64,000 bases of DNA from the NCBI GenBank assembly GCA_963790025.1, contig CAWBMP010000004.1:1568001-1632000 (forward strand), read 5' to 3'. Every line of letters starts with the position of its first letter. The stretch's first letter is position 1. The notes under the pieces were generated by a model. The model made no database searches. It worked only from the letters and a program-made list of their open reading frames with translations, and had not been told where the DNA came from. The DNA comes from Nitrospirota bacterium (GTDB lineage: Bacteria; Nitrospirota; Thermodesulfovibrionia; Thermodesulfovibrionales; Dissulfurispiraceae). Both the position numbers and the translations under genes were made by a program. Shown here one piece after another: positions 85-55,199 of this stretch.

Positions 85-1610
<1,526 letters not shown>

Positions 1611-1691
1611 TAAGGAAAGAGAGACAGAATCTACCTTTTAGTTTTATAGATGATTATGATCTTTGACAATGCAGGGGAAGAGAAGTAAAGA

Positions 1692-4721
<3,030 letters not shown>

Positions 4722-4786
4722 CTTCTTATTCTCTCTCCCTTGCTTGTCAAATTGTCTATCTTACATAGTGCACGCTTTCGCTGTAT

Positions 4787-29005: not shown

Positions 29006-30445
29006 TCACACAATCGGTTTGAATTGTTTCATCATAGCTGGTTTCTTATCCAATATTTCAGAGATCAGCCATATAGTGACTTCGTTCTGAAACTTTTGAA
29101 TCTTACAACCCTTTTCGTAAGGCATTTTAAGGTCGCCATTGTACTGGACATTATTCGCCGGGCACAATCCGCCACAGAGATACCTGGACCAGCAACTGAT
29201 GCACTCCTCACACTGGAACACAAAACCCCTCAACTGTTGACATAACCTGTTCTGTTTGTCAATCTTGAGACCGGTGTCGACGTCCCCTAGCTTGTATTCC
29301 TCGATGCCGACAAAGCCCATGCATGGGTAAAGATCTCCTGATCCTGAGACGCAAAGGCTATTGATTCCTGCACCGCAGGGCGTGGTTTTTGGAGTTTCAT
29401 AATACACCTTGGCTATGTTATTGCTCATCACGACATCGGTTGCATTGTCCTTTTCCAACAACTCCTTCAAATAGAAGTGTGCAAACCTCAGATATTCTTT
29501 CTTCATGTCCTCTAAATCTTCGTCAGAAATGACAAAGTTGCCGTTTCCATTAAAGAGCTTGCTTGCCTCATTTGCAAATCCGACCTCGACATCGGGAAAG
29601 CCCATGTTTTCGAGGAATTTGTAAACCTCCAGTTTTTTCAAATTTGGCGGCGCAAGAGTCGCTTTAATGGATACCCCGACTTCATTGGTGTCCATTACCC
29701 TTAAAACATTCGAAATGACAGTATTCCAGCTTCCCCTTCCATCCTGATACGGGCGATTGAAATTGTGGTTTTCTTTGGGCCCATCGAGGCTTACACCTAT
29801 ACTCAGCCTCCTGGACCTCAAAAACTCGATGATCTCATCGTTCATTACCGTCCCGTTAGTTGTGAGCTTGTAGTCAAACTTTCGAATGCCCCGGTCTTTT
29901 ATTTGATTGCAATAGTCTATGGTAGACTTTATAACCTCGAAATTCAGAAACGGTTCTCCGCCGTAAAAGTCCACCGTGATTTCGTCGTTCTCAGTTGAGT
30001 GCTGCACGAGAAAGTCAATCGCCTTTATCGCGGTCTCTTTGCTCATTTTCCCTTCACTTTTTCTGACGTATTTACCGCCGTCGTTCCAGCAGTATCTGCA
30101 ATGCAGATTGCATCCGGCGATCAAGTTCAAGGTGAAAGTTACAATCCGTGTCTTGAAGTGTATGTTTTCCGGCGGGAAGTAAGAATGTTTGGTTTTTTGA
30201 AACAGCACCCCTCTTCGTTCCAAATCCCGAATTTCTGCCATGGCGTCTTTAACCGCCACTTTCGGGTATTTACCGTGAAGCTTCTGCAGGATATCGGAAT
30301 CTGAGTTAATGTTCCACAATTCAAGGACATCTCTTGCCACGGCATCGATCCTGAAAAACTTCGCGCTCTCGACATCAAAAAGCAGCGTCGTGCCCTCAAT
30401 ATCAAAGATATGCACCTGCTTGTCTTTTAAAGTCTGCATCATCAT
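29006..30445 (-). CDS. Radical SAM/SPASM peptide maturase with N-terminal RRE (ranthipeptide-synthase-like)
   Basis: N-terminal wHTH/RRE-like segment (LLFDVES..FFRID...EIRDLERRGVL), CNLHCRYC, FYGGEP, TTNG, SLDG, SPASM CGAG..LYPC..CISC..LCGGLC; ATG overlaps the upstream stop (ATGA at 30445-30442). Confidence 0.93.
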   Translation of the reverse strand: MMMQTLKDKQVHIFDIEGTTLLFDVESAKFFRIDAVARDVLELWNINSDSDILQKLHGKYPKVAVKDAMAEIRDLERRGVLFQKTKHSYFPPENIHFKTRIVTFTLNLIAGCNLHCRYCWNDGGKYVRKSEGKMSKETAIKAIDFLVQHSTENDEITVDFYGGEPFLNFEVIKSTIDYCNQIKDRGIRKFDYKLTTNGTVMNDEIIEFLRSRRLSIGVSLDGPKENHNFNRPYQDGRGSWNTVISNVLRVMDTNEVGVSIKATLAPPNLKKLEVYKFLENMGFPDVEVGFANEASKLFNGNGNFVISDEDLEDMKKEYLRFAHFYLKELLEKDNATDVVMSNNIAKVYYETPKTTPCGAGINSLCVSGSGDLYPCMGFVGIEEYKLGDVDTGLKIDKQNRLCQQLRGFVFQCEECISCWSRYLCGGLCPANNVQYNGDLKMPYEKGCKIQKFQNEVTIWLISEILDKKPAMMKQFKPIV

Positions 30446-31860
30446 TGTTTCTGAAGCGAAGAGGTGCACTTCTTTATTTGAAGCGCTATGGTGCACTTAT
30501 CAAACTCGGCAGAATTCCTGCATTTGTTTGTCTTCTGCTTATCAGAAGTGCACTTATTTACCTGGATTTCAATGGTGCAATTGTCTAACTTTTCAGCAAC
30601 TGTGCACTTGTTATCTATCTGGGCATTGGAAGTGCACTTATCTACTTGTGTTGTATTGTCGCATTTATCCCATTGCGCCGCATACGTGCACTTATTGTAT
30701 TGTTCAGCTGCGCCGCATCGATTATTCTGCAGTTCAATAGTGCACTTGTTGAACTGTGCGTCTATAGTGCATTTATTGTATTGCGCCTGATTGGTGCACT
30801 TGTTTACGTTTTCTTCCGCAACACATTTATCAATTTGCGCTGCCGTAGTGCACTTATCAAGCTGGTACGCAACCGTGCATCTGTTGGTCTCGGCAGGAGT
30901 CGTGCATTCGTTCGTTCTCTGCTTATCTGATGAGCACTTGTTCACTTGTATTTCCGCTGTGCATTTGTCGATTTGAGCATCAGAAGTGCACTTATCAATC
31001 TGGTACGCAACCGTGCACCTGTCGAGCTCGGCGGCTGTCGTGCATTTCTTTGTTTTCTGGTTACCGGATGTGCACCTGTCTACTTGTGCCTCTGTTGTGC
31101 ATTTGTCGATTCGTGCCTCGACAGTGCACTTATCAAGCTGATACGCAACTGTGCAGTTGTCGACCTCGGGAGGAGACTGGCACTTGTTTGTTTTCTGGGT
31201 ATCGGAAGTGCACCTGTTTACTTGTCCCTCTATCGTGCACCTGTCAATTTGCGCTGCAACCGTGCACTTGTTGATCAGCTCATCCACGGTACATCTGTCA
31301 AATTGCGCTGCAACCGTGCACTTATTGAATTGTTCGTTCATAGTGCATCTATTGTACTGTGCCGCACCGGTGCATTTATTTATATGTGCCGGCATGGTAC
31401 ATTTGTCCAGCTGTGAATCTCTGCTGCAATTATTGAACTGATACGCAATCGTGCACCTGTCAATATCGGCAGCACTCTCGCACTTGTTTATTTTCTGGTT
31501 AGCGGAAGTGCATTTGCCTACTAGTCCCTCTACAGTGCATCTGTCAAATTGCGCTGAAATCTTGCACTTATTGAATTGTGACTCAATTGTACATCTGTCA
31601 TGTTGCGTATTTGAATTGCACTTGTTGATCTGTTCCGGTATAGTGCATTGATCACGTTGTGTATCAGTGATGCATGGCCTTTCTTGTGTCTCTAATTTGA
31701 ATTCCTGCAGATTTTCTCTCCGGGTTGCAGCAGTTATTTTCCCGTCAGTTTCAGATTCGTGACTGCCGGCGCTGTGACCTTCCGCATCAATGTTTGACAA
31801 AGGCACGATATGTTTCGATTTAGAAACAACTTTCCCTTTTTTTATTCCCTTTGTTTTCAT
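30442..31860 (-). CDS. Cys-repeat protein: 62-aa leader plus 45 Cys-initiated 9/10-aa repeats; putative giant RiPP precursor
   Basis: 472-aa ORF, AAGGGGGAG SD, strict Cys periodicity, coupled to the rSAM/SPASM gene. Confidence 0.85.
   Translation of the reverse strand: MKTKGIKKGKVVSKSKHIVPLSNIDAEGHSAGSHESETDGKITAATRRENLQEFKLETQERPCITDTQRDQCTIPEQINKCNSNTQHDRCTIESQFNKCKISAQFDRCTVEGLVGKCTSANQKINKCESAADIDRCTIAYQFNNCSRDSQLDKCTMPAHINKCTGAAQYNRCTMNEQFNKCTVAAQFDRCTVDELINKCTVAAQIDRCTIEGQVNRCTSDTQKTNKCQSPPEVDNCTVAYQLDKCTVEARIDKCTTEAQVDRCTSGNQKTKKCTTAAELDRCTVAYQIDKCTSDAQIDKCTAEIQVNKCSSDKQRTNECTTPAETNRCTVAYQLDKCTTAAQIDKCVAEENVNKCTNQAQYNKCTIDAQFNKCTIELQNNRCGAAEQYNKCTYAAQWDKCDNTTQVDKCTSNAQIDNKCTVAEKLDNCTIEIQVNKCTSDKQKTNKCRNSAEFDKCTIALQIKKCTSSLQKQ
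30445..31674 (-). repeat. Degenerate 27/30-bp coding tandem repeat array (45 units)
   Basis: recurring plus-strand GTGCAC(T/C)T motifs; protein consensus C-T-x-x-x-Q-x-[DN]-[KR]. Confidence 0.95.
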
Positions 31861-31991
31861 GATGTGCTCCCCCTTTCATATAGTTACAGTCGAACGGAAA
31901 CCAGTCTATACAGCAATGTCGGCTAAACATATCGCGCGCCTTACTGCGGGTTCGCTGCTCATATCACGGTCCAGAGATGTATCAGTTTTCA

Positions 31992-32007: not shown

Positions 32008-32151
32008 TGGTTTTGCACTTGTTAAAGCATATCCCATTTATCTGCCTGTGGCAAGTTAATTTTTTTGAAGCATTACAATCTCTAAAGTCGTTGATTTTTA
32101 TAAAAAACTAAAGCGGTCAGGTCCTGGGGCTTGTAATAGTGGAATAATTAT

Positions 32152-32673
32152 TTATCTGATGACCCGGTCCGTGCCTGATAAAGCTTGTTCGATTTCCTGG
32201 AGAATGTCCTGTTTGAGCTTTGGCAGTTCTTTCCTAAGCAAATCGGCGGACGTGATTTCCTTGGGTATGGCCTCAAATCTTTTGCTGACGGCGTCCAGCA
32301 AAAGATCTCTTTCCTGCCTGCTCTGTTCATTTGAGGACCGGGAAGGAACTGCGGCCTTAACAAGCTGGGCCAGCTGGTCGTTGCTGAGGGCAAGCCTCGC
32401 ATCGATCGAGGCGAGCACGTTGAGCACCTGGTCGAGTTTGTCAACAGTCTGCCTGGATGAAACAGCAGAGAGCTGGGCTATATCTATCATTTGTCCCTGG
32501 CAAGAACCGGGCAGAGAAATATCCGTCGGCCTCACCCATCTGCCGAGACAGACCTGTGGCCCGCCAGGGCCGTTTATGACCGTATATTCGTCAATTACCA
32601 GAGACCAGACAGGCGCTGCACCGGAGAGGACAAAAATCAAACAAATTGCAGTAGCACAAACCAGCTTCTTCAT
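32152..32673 (-). CDS. Hypothetical exported protein with coiled-coil C-terminus
   Basis: signal-peptide-like MKKLVCATAICLIFVLSGAAPVWS; GGAGGAG SD. Confidence 0.75.
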   Translation of the reverse strand: MKKLVCATAICLIFVLSGAAPVWSLVIDEYTVINGPGGPQVCLGRWVRPTDISLPGSCQGQMIDIAQLSAVSSRQTVDKLDQVLNVLASIDARLALSNDQLAQLVKAAVPSRSSNEQSRQERDLLLDAVSKRFEAIPKEITSADLLRKELPKLKQDILQEIEQALSGTDRVIR

Positions 32674-44969: not shown

Positions 44970-45467
44970 TCAGTACCATAAAACAACGGCGGCGATTGCA
45001 GTTGCTATTTTCTTAACCTCATGTTCAACTGAAACGCTCATGATAGAGGCAACAGCTTCACGGCGCATCTTCATGGCCTCCTGAGCCATCCGTTGTGTGA
45101 TGCGTTCAATATCCTGTTTCCTTCCTCGTGAGGAATATTCCATGATGACTCCTGGTTTGCTCTTATCTTGTGGCAAAGCAACAGCTACGGCTGCAGAAAT
45201 AAATTCATGTTCTAAGTCGGATGTAATCGCAGCATAGGCTACAGGTACCAATGCGCCATAGGGCAATCTAATAGGTTTGACCTCACAGCAATTGGGCGGG
45301 ATTATACTGCTTATTTTGACAAGGTTTGAATTACCAATCCCTGCATTTAATAAGGCTCCATCGAAAGAATTGAGTTCCGTGTAACCTTCAGCGCTACCAA
45401 CTACCATAAAGAATTTGTTTGGTGTTCCATAAATGACTCCTTCAAGAGAATTGCCTATTTTTTTCAT
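44970..45467 (-). CDS. Pyruvoyl-dependent arginine decarboxylase
   Basis: LNSFDGALLNAGIGNSNLVKISSIIPP (Ser-Ser autocleavage site), GVIMEY. Confidence 0.9.
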   Translation of the reverse strand: MKKIGNSLEGVIYGTPNKFFMVVGSAEGYTELNSFDGALLNAGIGNSNLVKISSIIPPNCCEVKPIRLPYGALVPVAYAAITSDLEHEFISAAVAVALPQDKSKPGVIMEYSSRGRKQDIERITQRMAQEAMKMRREAVASIMSVSVEHEVKKIATAIAAVVLWY

Positions 45468-45490: not shown

Positions 45491-47095
45491 TCAAAATTTA
45501 TTCAGCTTAGGACGTATCTCTTCTTTGCTTATCGTCAAAGCATATATGGGATAGATATTCTCACCAAAGCGCTCATCAGCAACATGTTTAAATCCAAAAT
45601 ACTTACATAATCTCACTCCAACTTCCGTGATCGGAGAAGTAGCTACATACTTGGCATGTTCGAGCAGATAGTTTCCAACAGATCTGATTAAGAAACTACC
45701 CGCCCGCGAAGCGCCCCGTGAAGGGATAGTTGCAACAACTTCCAGAAAGAAATAATCCGTATCCTCATCTCTCAAAACCCCTAATTCAGAAAGATCAATA
45801 TCTGCAGATACGTCGCTGATAGAACTAATTACTCCTGCTAAAATGCGTTCAAATAGTGCCTTTTTAATGGGAACCAATGTCGCATAACCTAAGACCCAAT
45901 TTTTTTCGTCGCGAATTACCCAAAACACCCGCGGGTTATATGCATACCATCGTTTTAAGCTAGCAACAGAGAACACATGCCCATAGCCCGGGAAATTCCC
46001 CCATTCAATTTGCAGAATGCTTGATAATTCATCCTCACGAGCTAAATCAAAAGTGAGTTCACCGTGTATTTCGCGGTCTAATTTACTATATTCATGGTAG
46101 AGATAATCAGTGCCATGATCTTTTTCAATCTCGCAACTGAGAGGGCACCCTCCTCCACAGCGATCAAAATCATTACAAATCTTGCACCTTCCCGGCAAAT
46201 ATTCTCTATTTCTAAATGATTCGAGTATCTCAGAAGTATTCCAAATCTCCAGAAGCGGCCGTTCCAAAATATTGCCCAAACGATATCGTGGATCAGCCCC
46301 ACAACGAGAAAGAGCTCCTTCTATATTTACTGACGCAATTGATATACCCCACTTGCAGGGCGTCATATATTTCTTTAGTTCATTAGGAAGAATGCATAAT
46401 GGAAAGGGGTCTTCAACGGTTATTCTTATTCCAAGTTCTTTGTCAATTCTTTTGATGTCATTTAAAGACTGCTCTGCTTGTTGCCTTGTTAGCGTGAAAT
46501 TTGATGAGCCCGCTGCTCTGCCGAATGGAACTATTCTTTGCACAATGATGTAATTCAATTTCACTTTCTCTACGTTGACAATCCTATTAACTAAATCGAA
46601 GATTTTATCACTGATAGTGGGGAGAATATTAATAGCTATTCCTGTTTCCCGCCCAAGTCCTGACAATCTTTTCAATCTACCAATCACTGCCTGATATGCC
46701 CCCTCCCGGCGACAAAACTGATCATGGAGTCTGGGCTCGACATGGTGAATAGTGGTCTCAAATGCCGAGATATATTTTGCCGCCTCCTCTAAGGAAGAAT
46801 TTGGAAACAGTAAGGTATTTGATAAAATCGACACACGAATGCCATACGATTCAACAGCATACTTGGCGAGTTCTACGGCATGAGGATAGGCGCCAGGATC
46901 GCCGCCAAGCAACATAATGTTTTTGACTTTAGCAGAGCCGAGGGCGTCTACAACCTTTGTCGCTTTTTCTAGTGGAGGATGCTTCGGCTTGGCGGAAACA
47001 TCGTCGCCCGCATAACAAAAGGGACATTGATGAGAACAGACATAGGTAACGTGGAAGGCGACCGTATCAACGTGGTATTTATAGTCATCGGCCAT
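45491..47095 (-). CDS. Radical SAM/SPASM protein fused to a C-terminal GNAT-like domain
   Basis: CSHQCPFC, LGGDP, C..G..RC..CKIC..CGGGC; tail with VLGYATLVP..FFLEVVA..TEVGVRLCKYFGF. Confidence 0.82.
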   Translation of the reverse strand: MADDYKYHVDTVAFHVTYVCSHQCPFCYAGDDVSAKPKHPPLEKATKVVDALGSAKVKNIMLLGGDPGAYPHAVELAKYAVESYGIRVSILSNTLLFPNSSLEEAAKYISAFETTIHHVEPRLHDQFCRREGAYQAVIGRLKRLSGLGRETGIAINILPTISDKIFDLVNRIVNVEKVKLNYIIVQRIVPFGRAAGSSNFTLTRQQAEQSLNDIKRIDKELGIRITVEDPFPLCILPNELKKYMTPCKWGISIASVNIEGALSRCGADPRYRLGNILERPLLEIWNTSEILESFRNREYLPGRCKICNDFDRCGGGCPLSCEIEKDHGTDYLYHEYSKLDREIHGELTFDLAREDELSSILQIEWGNFPGYGHVFSVASLKRWYAYNPRVFWVIRDEKNWVLGYATLVPIKKALFERILAGVISSISDVSADIDLSELGVLRDEDTDYFFLEVVATIPSRGASRAGSFLIRSVGNYLLEHAKYVATSPITEVGVRLCKYFGFKHVADERFGENIYPIYALTISKEEIRPKLNKF

Positions 47096-47752: not shown

Positions 47753-48316
47753 TCATTCACTGCTAAGCGCTTCATAAAGTTTATTGGCTGATTTCTTACA
47801 ACTTGTTAAAATTTCTGGAAAGTTTGAAATTAAATCATCCTTGTTTAGGCAACCCTTCGCAGTCACAATATCAACAATATCAATTCCGGCATTTTCGCAG
47901 AAATATTTTACAGAATCAGCCGCCAATTTAATACTTTCGGCTTCTTCGCCTTCAGTTTGTCCTACAGCAAAAATGATAGCTTTTTTTCCCTTTAATGTTT
48001 GAGGTGCTGCCAAAGGATTTAAGCGATCAAAAAAGACTTTCAATTCCCCAGAAAGCAAGCTCCATCTCGCTGGCGTGCCAAAAATAAAAGCATCCGCCCG
48101 AGCCACGTCTGGTAAAAGCTCACGCATATCATCATCTTTTACACATTTGCCTTCGGCGTCACACTCTAGACACCCATCGCATACTTCCAATTTGACATCC
48201 CGTAAATGAATTAATTCAACATCACAATCTTTTGCTGTCAGCTCATGAGTTGCTGCTTCCACCATTGCGTATGTATTACCCCTTCTTGAGCTACCTACAA
48301 TTGCCAATACTCTCAT
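47753..48316 (-). CDS. Flavodoxin-fold iron-sulfur flavoprotein (Isf / FMN-reductase family)
   Basis: GSSRRGNT, CDGCLEC.....C..DDDM, GTP. Confidence 0.88.
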   Translation of the reverse strand: MRVLAIVGSSRRGNTYAMVEAATHELTAKDCDVELIHLRDVKLEVCDGCLECDAEGKCVKDDDMRELLPDVARADAFIFGTPARWSLLSGELKVFFDRLNPLAAPQTLKGKKAIIFAVGQTEGEEAESIKLAADSVKYFCENAGIDIVDIVTAKGCLNKDDLISNFPEILTSCKKSANKLYEALSSE

Positions 48317-50047: not shown

Positions 50048-52465
<2,418 letters not shown>

Positions 52466-52468
52466 TTA

Positions 52469-52589
52469 TTAAAGAAAGTAAGTAGTAAGCAGCAAAAGAA
52501 AAAATGACTTATAAGTCTTTTCTACTTGTCCACTACTGCCTACTGCTTATTGCCTACTGTTTCTGTTTAGTCTTTCTGCCTACTGTCTT
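52469..52589. repeat. Heptamer-based (CTACTGC-like) imperfect palindromic intergenic element
   Basis: AGTAAGTAGTAAGCAG... opposite ...CTACTGCCTACTGCTTATTGCCTACTG. Confidence 0.6.
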
Positions 52590-53693
52590 TTACAGCCTCA
52601 TCGGCATAACTACATATTTGTAATCGTTATTTTCGTTTTCCATGATGAGCGTAGGACTCAGCGGCTCATTAAGTTTAATCAAAATACTATCGGTGCTCAT
52701 AACGGTCAAGGCATCAAGAATGTATCGTGCGTTAAATGCCAAAGTGATCGGGTCTCCTGCATATTCCATTGACAGCTCATCCTTTGCTTCTCCGATGTCG
52801 GGATTGGAAGCGGATATCCCCATGGTATTGGGCCCAATATCGACTTTTACTGCGCTGCTCCTCTCTTTGCTCATTATGGAGACCCTTCGCAGCGATTTCA
52901 TAAGTGCTATCCTGTCTATGACAATGGTCTTCTCACAGGCAGCCGGGATGACCTGCTCGTAATTGGGGTATGTCCCCTCTATAAGTCTCGTGAGGAATTG
53001 TATCTTGTCGATTTCGAACAGGATATGGTTCTTCCCCAGCATCATCTTGACCTGTTTAGCTTCGTCATCAAGGAATCTGCGCAGTTCAGACAGCGACTTT
53101 CTGGAAAAAATTATCTTTTTCTCTTCTTTTAGTTTTGAACCCATTGCCTTCTGGGAAAGTGCAAGCCTGTGGCCGTCAGTGCCGACAACAGTAAGTGTAC
53201 CATCCGGCTTTATATTAAAAAGAAGGCCGTTCAAAACATACCGCGTATCCGACTCCCCGGCCGAATAGAGGGTTTTATCAATCATCTCGAGGAGCAGCAG
53301 GGAATCTATTTCCATCTTTTCAGTATCTTCCGACAGCGCCGGCCAGACCGGAAATTCATTATGAGAGAGGCAGGCGAGGCGAAAGTGGCTTTTCCCGCTT
53401 TTTACTTTAAGCCATTTTTCATCGCTCGATTCAAGTACTATATTGCCGTCCACCTCCCGCACAATCTCAAATAGTTTTTTTGCAGGAATGCAGAGCTTGC
53501 CCTCAGTCTCGACGGTGAGCGTGAGCGGTTCTTTAAAGGCAGTTTCAAGGTCCGTGGCCGTTATGTATGCTTCTCCCTTCTCGGCCGACAGAAGAAAATG
53601 GCTCAAGATAGGCATAGTATTTTTTTTCTCAACTATGTTCTGAATGTTTGCGAGCTTTTTCTGCAATTCATTCTTATCTACCGTTACCTTCAT
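52590..53693 (-). CDS. dnaN: DNA polymerase III beta clamp
   Basis: MPILSH, ATDLE, TDGHRL, LIEGTYPNY, VVMPMRL. Confidence 0.98.
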   Translation of the reverse strand: MKVTVDKNELQKKLANIQNIVEKKNTMPILSHFLLSAEKGEAYITATDLETAFKEPLTLTVETEGKLCIPAKKLFEIVREVDGNIVLESSDEKWLKVKSGKSHFRLACLSHNEFPVWPALSEDTEKMEIDSLLLLEMIDKTLYSAGESDTRYVLNGLLFNIKPDGTLTVVGTDGHRLALSQKAMGSKLKEEKKIIFSRKSLSELRRFLDDEAKQVKMMLGKNHILFEIDKIQFLTRLIEGTYPNYEQVIPAACEKTIVIDRIALMKSLRRVSIMSKERSSAVKVDIGPNTMGISASNPDIGEAKDELSMEYAGDPITLAFNARYILDALTVMSTDSILIKLNEPLSPTLIMENENNDYKYVVMPMRL

Positions 53694-53779
53694 CGATCCC
53701 CTCCATTAGTTCCGGCTTAACCGGTTGTTAAGCTGCCGGTAATACTTGCCGAAAGCACAAGTTGTTTATTCGCAACTCC

Positions 53780-55114
53780 TTATACCCCGGTAATCCTCCG
53801 TACTATATTATCAATGCTTTTATTGAGATTGTCATCCTTTCCGCGCTTTTCTTCAATCTGCTTGCAGGCATAAATCACCGTCGCATGGTCTTTCCCGCCA
53901 AAATATCTTCCGATTTCACTAAGCGACAGATTGGTATTGCGCTTTGCTATATACATGGCTATCTGCCGCGCATTCGCTATTTCCTTTGTCCTCTTCCTTG
54001 CCTTTATATCCTGAATTTTCAAGCCGAAAAAATCGCATACGATCTTCTGTATCAATTCAACGGTAATGGGCCTCTCATCGTCCACTATAAGATCTTTAAG
54101 CACAACTTTTGCCATGGCCGTATCAATCGGCATGGCCGTCAGCGATGAATGTGCCCACAGCTTTATAAGACACCCCTCGAGTTCTCTTATATTGGACTTT
54201 ATTTTGGTCGCGATAAAATAGGCCACCTCTTCCGGTATGTTCATTTTTTCTACTGCCGCTTTTTTATAAATAATCGCGATCTTTGTTTCAACTTCAGGAG
54301 GCTGTATATCGGCTATAAGCCCCATGCTGAACCGCGACCTGAGCCTGTCTGTTATATCGGATATCTCCAAAGGCGCCCTGTCACTCGATACAACGATCTG
54401 GCGCTGCTTTTCATAAAGTGCATTAAAGGTGTGGAAAAATTCTTCCTGAGTTGTGGTTTTATTTGCGATAAACTGAATGTCATCGATAAGCATGACATCG
54501 ACATTCCTGAATTTGTCCTTAAACTCCGCCATCTTTTCATGCCGCAAGGCAGAAATGACTTCATTGGTAAACTGCTCGGCAGAAACATAACAGACTATTT
54601 TATCGGGATATTTATCGACTATCATATTCCCTATGGCATTCATGAGATGCGTCTTGCCGAGTCCTACACCTCCGTAAATAAATAACGGATTATATGCAAC
54701 CCCGGGGTTCTCTGCGATCCTCCTGGAGGCTGCATGAGCAAACTGGTTCGACGGGCCCACAACAAAGGTATCAAAAATATACTTCGGACTTAAATAAATT
54801 CCCCTGCTTGCCAGCTTGATCTTTCTGGTCTCAAGTTTAGTATCATGCTTTTTGAGTGCAGCGTCCTCTTTCTCTATTATTTTATATTTAACGGACACCG
54901 GGTATCCCACAATCCCTTCCAGTGTTTCGTTAATAATTACAGGATAATAATCCTCAATCCATTCTCTGAAAAACCTGTTGGGAATGCCGATGGTTATGAC
55001 CTTGTCTTTAAGACCGATGAATCTCATCGGCTTGAACCACAGTTCAAAAAGACTATCACCAACTTTTTTAGCAATCTCGAGAAGATTTTTATTCCATATC
55101 TCTTCTATATTCAC
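53780..55114 (-). CDS. dnaA: Chromosomal replication initiator
   Basis: YNPLFIYGGVGLGKTHL, DDIQF, QEEFFHTFN, GGKDHATV; probable GTG start (MNIEEIW). Confidence 0.98.
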   Translation of the reverse strand: MNIEEIWNKNLLEIAKKVGDSLFELWFKPMRFIGLKDKVITIGIPNRFFREWIEDYYPVIINETLEGIVGYPVSVKYKIIEKEDAALKKHDTKLETRKIKLASRGIYLSPKYIFDTFVVGPSNQFAHAASRRIAENPGVAYNPLFIYGGVGLGKTHLMNAIGNMIVDKYPDKIVCYVSAEQFTNEVISALRHEKMAEFKDKFRNVDVMLIDDIQFIANKTTTQEEFFHTFNALYEKQRQIVVSSDRAPLEISDITDRLRSRFSMGLIADIQPPEVETKIAIIYKKAAVEKMNIPEEVAYFIATKIKSNIRELEGCLIKLWAHSSLTAMPIDTAMAKVVLKDLIVDDERPITVELIQKIVCDFFGLKIQDIKARKRTKEIANARQIAMYIAKRNTNLSLSEIGRYFGGKDHATVIYACKQIEEKRGKDDNLNKSIDNIVRRITGV

Positions 55115-55199
55115 TCTTCCGCTATCCCCATGACCCAAAACTTTATAAAAAACATAGATATTACGGGGCCCATGCAAAAACCGGATTTATCAGATCATT

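Follow-up and report, generated by a model that had tools for sequence, protein, structure and literature searches.

A bacterial protein with a cysteine at every ninth residue and the adjoining radical SAM enzyme: a conserved pair of putative substrate and maturase

Introduction

What could be the use of a protein of 472 aa in which a cysteine returns at nearly every ninth residue, and what does the enzyme encoded directly after it do to it? The question is raised by a gene pair on the minus strand of a 64-kb stretch of DNA from a Nitrospirota bacterium (contig CAWBMP010000004.1, positions 1,568,001 to 1,632,000), which was analyzed as a whole and is called the window below. The enzyme has the make-up of a radical S-adenosylmethionine (rSAM) maturase, with a putative recognition element (RRE) of the kind known from RiPPs (peptides made on the ribosome and then modified post-translationally) and a SPASM domain. 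A preliminary description of the locus had proposed that this enzyme installs up to about 45 thioether rings on the repeat protein, the product being either a poly-macrocyclic polymer or a library of about 45 variant cores released at the Lys/Arg-Cys bonds.

The explanation that we favour, with modest confidence, is that of a dedicated substrate-maturase module in which the whole protein would bear many thioether rings, and not of a source of released peptides. The pairing can be read from genome comparison, while the chemistry, the acceptor residue and the function are what we infer. The features of the gene pair are the following.

30442..31860, minus strand: gene of the 472-aa Cys-every-ninth repeat protein, putative substrate (open reading frame and unit counts)
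31675..31860, minus strand: Cys-free charged N-terminal region, codons 1-62, putative leader or recognition region (unit count)
30445..31674, minus strand: 45 Cys-led units, codons 63-472, C-T-[IVT]-x-x-Q-hydrophobic-[DN]-[KR] (unit counts)
29006..30445, minus strand: gene of the 479-aa RRE/rSAM/SPASM enzyme, putative maturase
30442..30445, minus strand: ATGA stop/start overlap of the repeat gene and the enzyme gene (TGA 30444-30442, ATG 30445-30443)
31867..31873, minus strand: Shine-Dalgarno sequence GGGGGAG, 6 nt ahead of the ATG at 31860 (read directly)

Results and Discussion

The repeat protein of the window

Our recount of the repeat protein gave figures identical to those reported before. 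A Cys-free start of 62 aa is followed by 45 Cys, the first at residue 63, with spacings of 9 (38 times) and 10 (six times) and a last unit of 8 aa. Thr is found at +1 in 34 of the 45 units and Gln at +5 likewise in 34/45, while the position two residues before the next Cys is occupied by Asp or Asn in 41 of 44 cases and the one immediately before it by Lys or Arg in 39/44. Counting just the 38 units of nine residues, Gln at +5 appears in 27, a hydrophobic residue at +6 in 34, Asp/Asn at +7 in 36 and Lys/Arg at +8 in 34. When residues 63-472 were shuffled 20000 times, no Cys spacing came up more than 15 times in any shuffle, against the 38 occurrences observed, so that the Cys periodicity of this protein is far above chance. 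The N-terminal 62 aa were described as charged and without a hydrophobic signal, as they are (maximum 15-residue Kyte-Doolittle mean of 0.23).

No Pfam or NCBIfam model matches the repeat protein, and the NCBIfam precursor models gave 0 families. At the DNA level the 27-bp period of the gene is matched at only 59%, which means that the periodicity is kept at the protein level and is not that of a fresh minisatellite. There is a longer repeat as well:

30824..31269, minus strand: 138-bp super-repeat equal to five units (46 aa), 3.2 copies, 77% identity (Tandem Repeats Finder)

Its blocks start with a 10-aa unit CTSxxQKTNK that is visible in the unit list, and the super-repeat is a recent block duplication within the array. 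This duplication of five units explains why the window protein has 45 units and its relatives (see below) 31-33. AlphaFold2 gave no confident fold for the unmodified protein (pLDDT, the predicted local distance difference test, 40.0; pTM, the predicted template modelling score, 0.17), a result compatible with a substrate that takes its structure from crosslinks, and to be read as weak evidence given an alignment of 7 rows. No second periodic-Cys open reading frame (ORF) was found in the window apart from the repeat gene. On the plus strand, inside the repeat gene (30279-31438), there are ORFs of 94-160 aa rich in Cys or His, which are by-products of the repeat and not genes.

The two stop and start codons overlap as had been described, and by this ATGA one transcript is shown to serve for the translation of both the repeat protein and the enzyme.

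The pair in other genomes

We scanned 185,579 species genomes with the family alignment. A match was found in 234 stretches, 195 of which encode a relative of the enzyme, and the gene contexts were counted over the best 80 of these 195, corresponding to 79 loci. Five loci (L001-L005) belong to the clade of the window enzyme; they come from metagenome-assembled genomes (MAGs), two of Krumholzibacteriota, one of Eisenbacteria and two unclassified, with enzymes 41-44% identical to that of the window. In all five a Cys-every-ninth protein is encoded directly upstream on the same strand, while a nine-spaced Cys ORF was present in 0/74 of the more distant rSAM loci. The 21 sister-clade loci examined had no Cys-rich repeat protein upstream. 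A repeat protein standing mostly without an rSAM neighbour would, by the preliminary description, have refuted the proposal, and within the sample no such tendency was seen.

The repeat proteins of the relatives have 356-361 aa, with 31-33 Cys at nine-residue spacing. The gap to the enzyme gene goes from -29 to +25 bp, four of the five being between +10 and +25, and the value of -29 bp (L002) rests on an unrefined enzyme start. Their alignment with the window protein is in register (28-34% identity): the Cys columns do not vary, the C-terminal ends are similar, and the units of odd length occupy the same places in all five relatives. Among the relatives the genes have diverged in parallel, with identities of 36-60% for the repeat protein, 58-77% for the enzyme and 36-71% for a third gene that is described below. 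For the repeat gene dN/dS was computed in four pairs and came to 0.25-0.49, dS being near saturation. By these comparisons the units correspond to one another by position across species, as orthologues, and are kept by purifying selection, and the repeat protein and the enzyme appear as a conserved dedicated pair within the sample examined.

Searches of protein databases gave few additional relatives. A word-indexed search of 5.8 billion proteins yielded 3861 candidates of 259-826 aa, none of them a relative of the repeat protein at E<=0.001, and the profile of the repeat-protein alignment retrieved from it only P0132, itself a row of that alignment; this kind of search requires shared words of 5 residues, so that diverged repeats are easily missed. 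Against an exhaustive library of 1.84 billion representatives there were 32 matches at E<=0.001, and the true relatives among them were only P0132 and P0140, both fragments. The ESM Atlas gave no usable match. The family looks rare in protein databases, an impression to be taken with reserve since such searches serve repeat proteins poorly. Those other library matches that were read were rejected, being near-perfect 9-aa repeats in unrelated proteins or lacking periodic Cys. P0121, P0122, P0138 and others are long, eukaryote-like predicted proteins with near-perfect 9-aa Cys repeats that resemble translated 27-bp minisatellites, a trap for sequence searches of this family.

That most of the library matches are of this kind, in unrelated long proteins, is what could be said in favour of an artefact, namely a functionless tandem DNA repeat that is translated and lies beside an rSAM gene by chance. 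We give it practically no credit. The DNA repeats of the window have diverged while C, Q and D/N were kept, the gene has a strong Shine-Dalgarno sequence and ATGA coupling, and the conservation of orthologues in five MAGs with dN/dS <0.5 refutes it.

The enzyme and its clade

The enzyme ORF could also start at an upstream GTG, giving 496 aa. We prefer the ATG and 479 aa, because the closest homologue has 478 aa and is covered at 100%. The domains are these.

30146..30418, minus strand: RRE-like (PqqD-like) N-terminal domain, residues ~10-100, aligning with CteB residues 6-~95 (5wgg/5why)
30089..30112, minus strand: radical SAM cluster motif C112-x3-C116-x2-C119, invariant in 21/21 rows of the enzyme alignment
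29105..29377, minus strand: SPASM domain, residues 357-447, seven conserved Cys

Both the CxxxCxxC motif and the SPASM domain are thus present as first described. The SPASM pattern is C357, G370-x4-C375, C415-x2-C418-x5-C424-x3-C428, C447; over the 21 rows C357, C375, C415 and C418 are invariant, and C424, C428 and C447 are conserved at >=90%. In Pfam scans of the 21 family members Radical_SAM was found in all of them and SPASM in 15 at E<=1. The RRE-like N-terminus had been claimed too, and here the outcome was mixed: the segment aligns with the N-terminus of CteB, and its Pfam match to PqqD reaches only E 0.082 (residues 21-80). Similar PqqD matches were found in 9/21 family members at E<=1, all of them weak, with a best value of 0.0012. 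Residues 1-100 are actually the most diverged part of the enzyme (26-37% identity vs 42-54% elsewhere, in the complete rows outside the subclade of the window enzyme), which fits a recognition domain that may have changed along with its leader.

In the PDB the closest solved structure was CteB (5wgg/5why), with E 8.9e-65 over enzyme residues 10-462, N-terminal domain included. The anaerobic sulfatase-maturing enzyme (anSME) matched the core only, with E 7e-16. In NCBIfam 77 models match the enzyme, none of them reaching its curated cutoff. The best scores were those of the SCIFF maturase TIGR03974 (278.6 bits, cutoff 425), QhpD TIGR03906 (274.1, cutoff 453), the nif11-class maturase model (265.4, cutoff 518.7) and PapB NF047865 (257.9, cutoff 340). 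Far lower values were obtained for the best sactisynthase model, RumMC (133.8), the CXXX-repeat TIGR04115 (121.1, cutoff 350), the Cys-every-fifth maturase NF038107 (114.9, cutoff 600), anSME TIGR03942 (113.7, cutoff 349.45), the Crp-type TIGR04463 (99, and 75.8 for the L003 enzyme; cutoff 525) and the cyclophane formers (71-87). As anticipated, then, the enzyme resembles the CteB, QhpD and PapB type and not anSME, and the sulfatase-type motif C-x-[PA]-x-R surrounds 0/45 Cys of the repeat protein. The screening against RiPP models suggested in the preliminary description (SCIFF, CXXX-repeat, Cys-every-fifth) yielded no cutoff reached by the enzyme and no match to the repeat protein.

The protein search with the enzyme found 387 relatives at E<=1e-30 among 6363 candidates. 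There are 21 clusters at 41-99% identity, after which the values drop to <=33%. We built a maximum-likelihood (ML) tree of 51 rows, unrooted, leaving out the long-branch rows P0032, P0044 and P0118. A branch supported at 100/100 separates all 21 family rows from the rest, and SCIFF (9 rows), QhpD (5) and CcpM (2) formed separate groups. These groups were labelled by the NCBIfam cutoffs, with 45 of the 120 listed proteins scanned; labelled SCIFF maturases score 461-785 bits and bona fide QhpD rows 509-628. A quick tree of 54 rows agrees, with 100 for the clade in the Shimodaira-Hasegawa-like approximate likelihood ratio test (SH-aLRT). The window enzyme forms a subclade (4 rows, 100/100) with P0001, P0003 and P0004, its closest relatives, which are metagenomic and 73-77% identical. 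By both trees, the enzyme is a member of a discrete clade apart from the SCIFF, QhpD and CcpM maturases.

In two of the more distant loci, whose rSAM enzymes are ~30% identical, we have noticed small ORFs just upstream of the enzyme gene: L006 5597-5752 (Planctomycetia MAG) and L014 2522-2602 (Omnitrophota MAG). They share a C-terminal ...F-C-x-C-x-R-V-L-W tail and are candidate short precursors for a large sister group of unclassified maturases.

The unit motif and the likely ring

The five relatives contribute 124 units of nine residues, with Ser or Thr at +2 in 88 and Gln at +5 in 73. Asp or Asn stands at +7 in 77/124, or 90/124 counting Glu, and Lys or Arg at +8 in just 38/124. In the 30 units of 10-13 aa found over the six proteins Gln was at +5 in 20, Asp/Asn at +7 in only 2, and Asp, Asn or Glu at -2 of the next Cys in 21. 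This pattern indicates that insertions fall between two modules, C-x4-Q and [DNE]-x-C. A fixed ring from Cys to the Asp/Asn at +7, one of the options put forward at first, fits poorly with such longer units. From the behaviour of these longer units, the most likely rings would run from Cys(i) to Gln(i+5) or from [Asp/Asn/Glu](i-2) to Cys(i), and not as a fixed bond from Cys to the residue at +7. Two known substrates offer an analogy, as far as the excerpts of the respective articles go. In CrpA of Methanococcus voltae the Cys comes ahead of the acceptor, with a motif C-x-x-Q/D (PMC13692751), and with PapB the acceptor is C-terminal to the Cys, has so far been a carboxylate, and the spacing is free (PMC12373016). 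By these precedents the upstream option would be slightly less likely than Cys-to-Gln(+5) or Cys-to-Asp(+7).

The RRE/rSAM/SPASM architecture and the kinship to CteB, QhpD and PapB point to a thioether mechanism. It is rather unlikely, in our opinion, that each unit would carry some other modification, be it a C-C or C-O crosslink at Thr, Gln or Asn, an alpha-carbon thioether (sactionine), an epimerisation or an oxidation of Cys. There is room for it in that the enzyme is beneath every family cutoff and in a clade of its own, that the conservation of Thr/Ser and Gln equals that of Asp/Asn, and that SPASM enzymes make C-C, C-O and C-S links besides methylation and epimerisation (PMC13692751, in excerpt). 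However, Cys is the sole invariant residue in every unit, and the top models (258-279 bits) and the closest structure are thioether formers, far from the scores of RumMC and the cyclophane formers. The lack of anSME-type motifs speaks in the same direction.

An export-type signal and a third gene in the relatives

The repeat proteins of the relatives begin with M-x-R-R-x-F-[LI]-x-x-x-P-L-W-x-I-G, the RRxF[LI] part being present in the five loci and in P0132, which has a Tat-like (twin-arginine translocation) start. A moderately hydrophobic stretch follows the RR motif (maximum Kyte-Doolittle 1.47-1.83), then mostly an AxA-like site, judged by eye, and a conserved segment H-[IMV]-x-[ML]-[IV]-G. 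At the level of motifs this N-terminus probably reads as a Tat-like signal for the export of the whole protein. The window N-terminus has neither an RR nor an RRxF[LI] motif, and its hydrophobicity is low, as given above. Two motifs shared by the leaders, H-I-x-x-[IL]-[GS] (seen by eye) and P-L-x-x-I (from MAFFT), were considered and rejected, as the profile of the relatives scores -1.8 bits on the window.

Directly after the enzyme gene, all five relatives have a third gene, for a protein of ~630-680 aa, 34-71% identical among themselves:

L001, 6509-8470: third gene
L002, 3854-5752: third gene
L003, 7469-9391: third gene
L004, 7474-9393: third gene
L005, 7344-9392: third gene

The protein has a signal-like N-terminal start and CARDB, PPC and FlgD-Ig matches. 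A sorting domain of the type IX secretion system (T9SS), TIGR04183, was found with 40.9 and 39.8 bits (cutoff 23) in the two proteins scanned, and Pfam Por_Secre_tail with E<=1.1e-4 in the four scanned. The protein is modelled as all-beta (pLDDT 57.6), and a likeness to CARDB arrays is also seen in its N-terminal third. Pfam and NCBIfam scans found no peptidase domain in it. No homologue of the third gene exists anywhere in the 64-kb window (best tblastn E 0.33), nor of the other flanking genes of the relatives that we tested (best tblastn E 0.093). The Tat-like signal on the repeat protein and the T9SS-sorted surface-protein partner are new features of the relatives, and the window copy is without both.

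These data bear on the fate of the product. Multi-core precursors are known in other RiPP classes. The window protein has Lys or Arg before the next Cys in most of its units (39/44) and the unit sequences vary, as would suit a precursor from which some 45 cyclised cores are cut out after the Lys/Arg preceding each Cys. This option, left open by the preliminary description, has lost ground, and we find it improbable. The cleavage site is not conserved in the relatives (38/124), no protease or exporter was found among the ORFs scanned around the window pair or adjoining the pair in the relatives, and the third gene of the latter encodes an all-beta CARDB/PPC/T9SS-tail protein with no peptidase domain detected. 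Besides, the units are positionally orthologous and under purifying selection, and the export-type N-terminal signal belongs to the whole protein. Because of the unconserved Lys/Arg site, the lack of an adjacent protease or exporter, the orthologous and selected units and the export signal of the relatives, we conclude in favour of a whole protein as product. The precursor is also not a short one, with 472 aa in the window, 356-361 aa in the relatives, and no protease nearby.

Tat substrates typically bear cofactors. This would suit a protein with free Cys that binds metals or clusters or buffers redox changes, with the rSAM enzyme modifying few or none of them or acting as a chaperone. In the same line, metal binding is predicted for most Cys-rich proteins of archaea, and even for CrpA some role with metals has been suggested (excerpts of PMC13692751). 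We regard this as quite improbable, since the Pfam and NCBIfam scans of the repeat protein gave no metal-binding family, and a strict and exclusive pairing with a complete rSAM/SPASM enzyme that is catalytically intact would be hard to explain without catalysis on its neighbour. To our knowledge, single Cys nine residues apart are also unlike the patterns of ferredoxins or metallothioneins.

A model and its weight

We propose the following course of events for the module. The cytoplasmic enzyme would dock through its RRE-like domain on the Cys-free N-terminal region of the repeat protein and move along the array. In each nine-residue unit it would abstract a H atom from a side-chain carbon, which would then be joined to the sulfur of the Cys of the unit in a ranthionine-type thioether, with -2 Da per ring and up to ~45 rings. 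The product would be the whole protein turned into a chain of small macrocycles. In the relatives the modified protein would probably be exported by the Tat-like signal, and the co-encoded T9SS-sorted CARDB/PPC surface protein points to a role in the cell envelope. The window copy, without the signal or the surface partner, may stay in the cytoplasm or take another route.

Several points weigh against this model. We infer what kind of crosslink is formed, which residue accepts it and how many rings there are. The enzyme is under the cutoff of every named family, so that function can be transferred by similarity only. PapB-type enzymes, as far as the excerpts of the literature go, have so far crosslinked only carboxylates, and the best-conserved candidates here include the amides Gln and Asn. 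The window leader is unlike the N-termini of the relatives, whose profile scores -1.8 bits on it, and no shared recognition motif was found. NCBIfam and Pfam scans of those N-termini gave no match, Tat-signal models included if these collections contain them. Finally, the pairing was read in only one of the three enzyme subclades plus the window, with P0001, P0003, P0004 and P0005/P0006 outside the sample.

A wider reading would be a so far undescribed class of protein-scale poly-macrocycles, in which one rSAM enzyme makes 31-45 rings on a single chain. In lineages of the Fibrobacterota-Chlorobiota-Bacteroidota (FCB) type, the RRE would read the unusually conserved Tat-like N-terminus M-x-RR-x-F-L-x-x-x-P-L-W-x-I-G-S-G itself. 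Its binding would delay export until crosslinking is complete, after which the protein would leave via Tat. Thereafter it would work with the T9SS-anchored CARDB/PPC protein and might, for instance, serve as an envelope fibre that is rigid and protease-proof, or as a binding scaffold. The window organism would have a leader-swapped, expanded version without the export signal. We put this forward tentatively, as a possibility that is on the doubtful side. We know of only three to six links in QhpC, SCIFF and freyrasin, far below 31-45.

If the module proposed above does work in this way, it would bear the densest thioether array installed by an enzyme on one polypeptide, with one ring per nine residues over 410. 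A single enzyme would make it, by processive or repeated action at sites far from where it docks. The young field of whole-protein RiPP-like crosslinks (CrpA, QhpC) would be extended to bacteria of several phyla, with a clean two-gene system to study how an RRE-anchored rSAM enzyme handles dozens of sites, and in the relatives the maturation by an rSAM enzyme would be tied to both Tat export and type IX secretion. For the engineering of polycyclic proteins the regular C-x4-Q-x-[DN] unit would make an attractive scaffold.

Surroundings of the pair in the window

An intergenic region of 291 bp, lying upstream of the repeat gene, contains a promoter-like site:

32026..32054, minus strand: TTGCCA-17-TATGCT (consensus match, 9/12)

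This region has fewer promoter-like sites than its shuffles, so that the promoter evidence is weak. The gene directly upstream (32152-32673, minus strand) encodes a protein of 173 aa; this protein has a signal-peptide-like start, matches nothing in Pfam or NCBIfam and lacks a counterpart in L001-L005. Downstream of the pair comes an ACT-domain/DUF711 pair. No qhp genes were found among the window ORFs scanned.

The window also contains a complete 16S rRNA (85-1609) and a 23S rRNA (1694-4722) in an rRNA operon at 85-4722, and dnaA-dnaN-gyrB at 50048-55174. From the rRNA operon and dnaA/dnaN/gyrB, it is a chromosomal, origin-proximal region. A second, unrelated rSAM protein with SPASM domain (533 aa, 45491-47092, minus strand) is far below every NCBIfam cutoff, the best being NirJ2 with 89.9 bits vs 500. 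It has as neighbours the genes of a pyruvoyl arginine decarboxylase (44970-45464) and a FMN reductase (47753-48313). The GC content of the stretch around it is low (0.37-0.39 at 46-50 kb), which may mark an island.

Comparison with known systems

The preliminary description knew of no described family with this periodicity and size. That still holds in part: neither a Pfam or NCBIfam model nor a paper on such a family was found, and CrpA/CrpC, as it appears in the excerpts of PMC13692751, is a comparable system. In our literature search no family with a nine-residue Cys repeat was described, the 2019 ranthipeptide survey having been outside its reach, and no link of rSAM enzymes with Tat or with T9SS was found. 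The taxon names that we searched are absent from two supplementary files of the Crp paper (PMC13692751). Judged by its models and trees, the pair belongs to no named family, and it differs from those known in periodicity (9), number of sites (31-45) and phyletic range.

SCIFF (CteA/CteB) is similar in that CteB is the closest solved structure and its family the top hidden Markov model (HMM); the match runs over the full length and takes in the two auxiliary clusters and the RRE-like domain at the N-terminus. As a precursor SCIFF systems have a peptide of ~45 aa that contains six Cys, against a substrate of 472 aa and 45 Cys here, and the enzyme, with 278.6 bits against the cutoff of 425, is in a separate clade (100/100). 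The structure 5WHY is identified as CteB in the excerpts of PMC13692751 too. According to the same source, QhpD links Cys to Asp/Glu on a protein subunit via an RRE-bound leader, and QhpC functions in the periplasm after modification in the cytoplasm. This is the older case of an rSAM enzyme with RRE that makes thioethers at the protein level, and it gave the second-best HMM. Unlike it, our enzyme is below the cutoff of 453 in a separate clade, and QhpC is an enzyme subunit with three links.

In the case of PapB and freyrasin, the likeness is in the repeated Cys...acidic motifs with one small thioether ring each. Freyrasin is a short peptide bearing six C-x3-D rings. The distance from thiol to acceptor may vary without hindering PapB (PMC12373016, in excerpt); the window enzyme has 257.9 bits, below the cutoff of 340, and Gln/Asn are prominent here in place of the carboxylate acceptors there. 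The precursors of the Cys-every-fifth (CefA/CefB, NF038107) and CXXX-repeat (TIGR04115) systems also have periodic Cys and are paired with an rSAM/SPASM maturase, but with a different periodicity and with enzyme scores of 114.9 (cutoff 600) and 121.1 bits (cutoff 350).

CrpA/CrpC of Methanococcus voltae, from 2026, is the nearest in kind, and the comparison follows the excerpts of PMC13692751. There an RRE, rSAM and SPASM enzyme also adjoins a large Cys-rich protein, and the outcome is a modified protein and not a peptide. The links that CrpC forms on CrpA, a repeat protein of 28.8 kDa, are ranthionines: the mass shifts by -2 Da at each site, alkylatable thiols are lost, and the fragmentation is of the ranthionine type. 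The crosslinking of a large Cys-rich repeat protein by such an enzyme is thus already established. CrpA has in the same way a Cys-free N-terminal recognition region and a C-terminal array of Cys motifs with Gln/Asp, and shares with the window protein the low AlphaFold confidence over the repeats. The differences are that CrpC belongs to a separate enzyme family (TIGR04463, 99 bits for the window enzyme vs cutoff 525), and that CrpA has a 17-residue motif repeated ten times, with ~10% Cys, in an archaeon, while here there are 9 residues repeated 31-45 times, in bacteria. A CrpB-like paralogue is absent here, and what the relatives have in addition is a signal of the Tat-like kind and a surface protein sorted by the T9SS.

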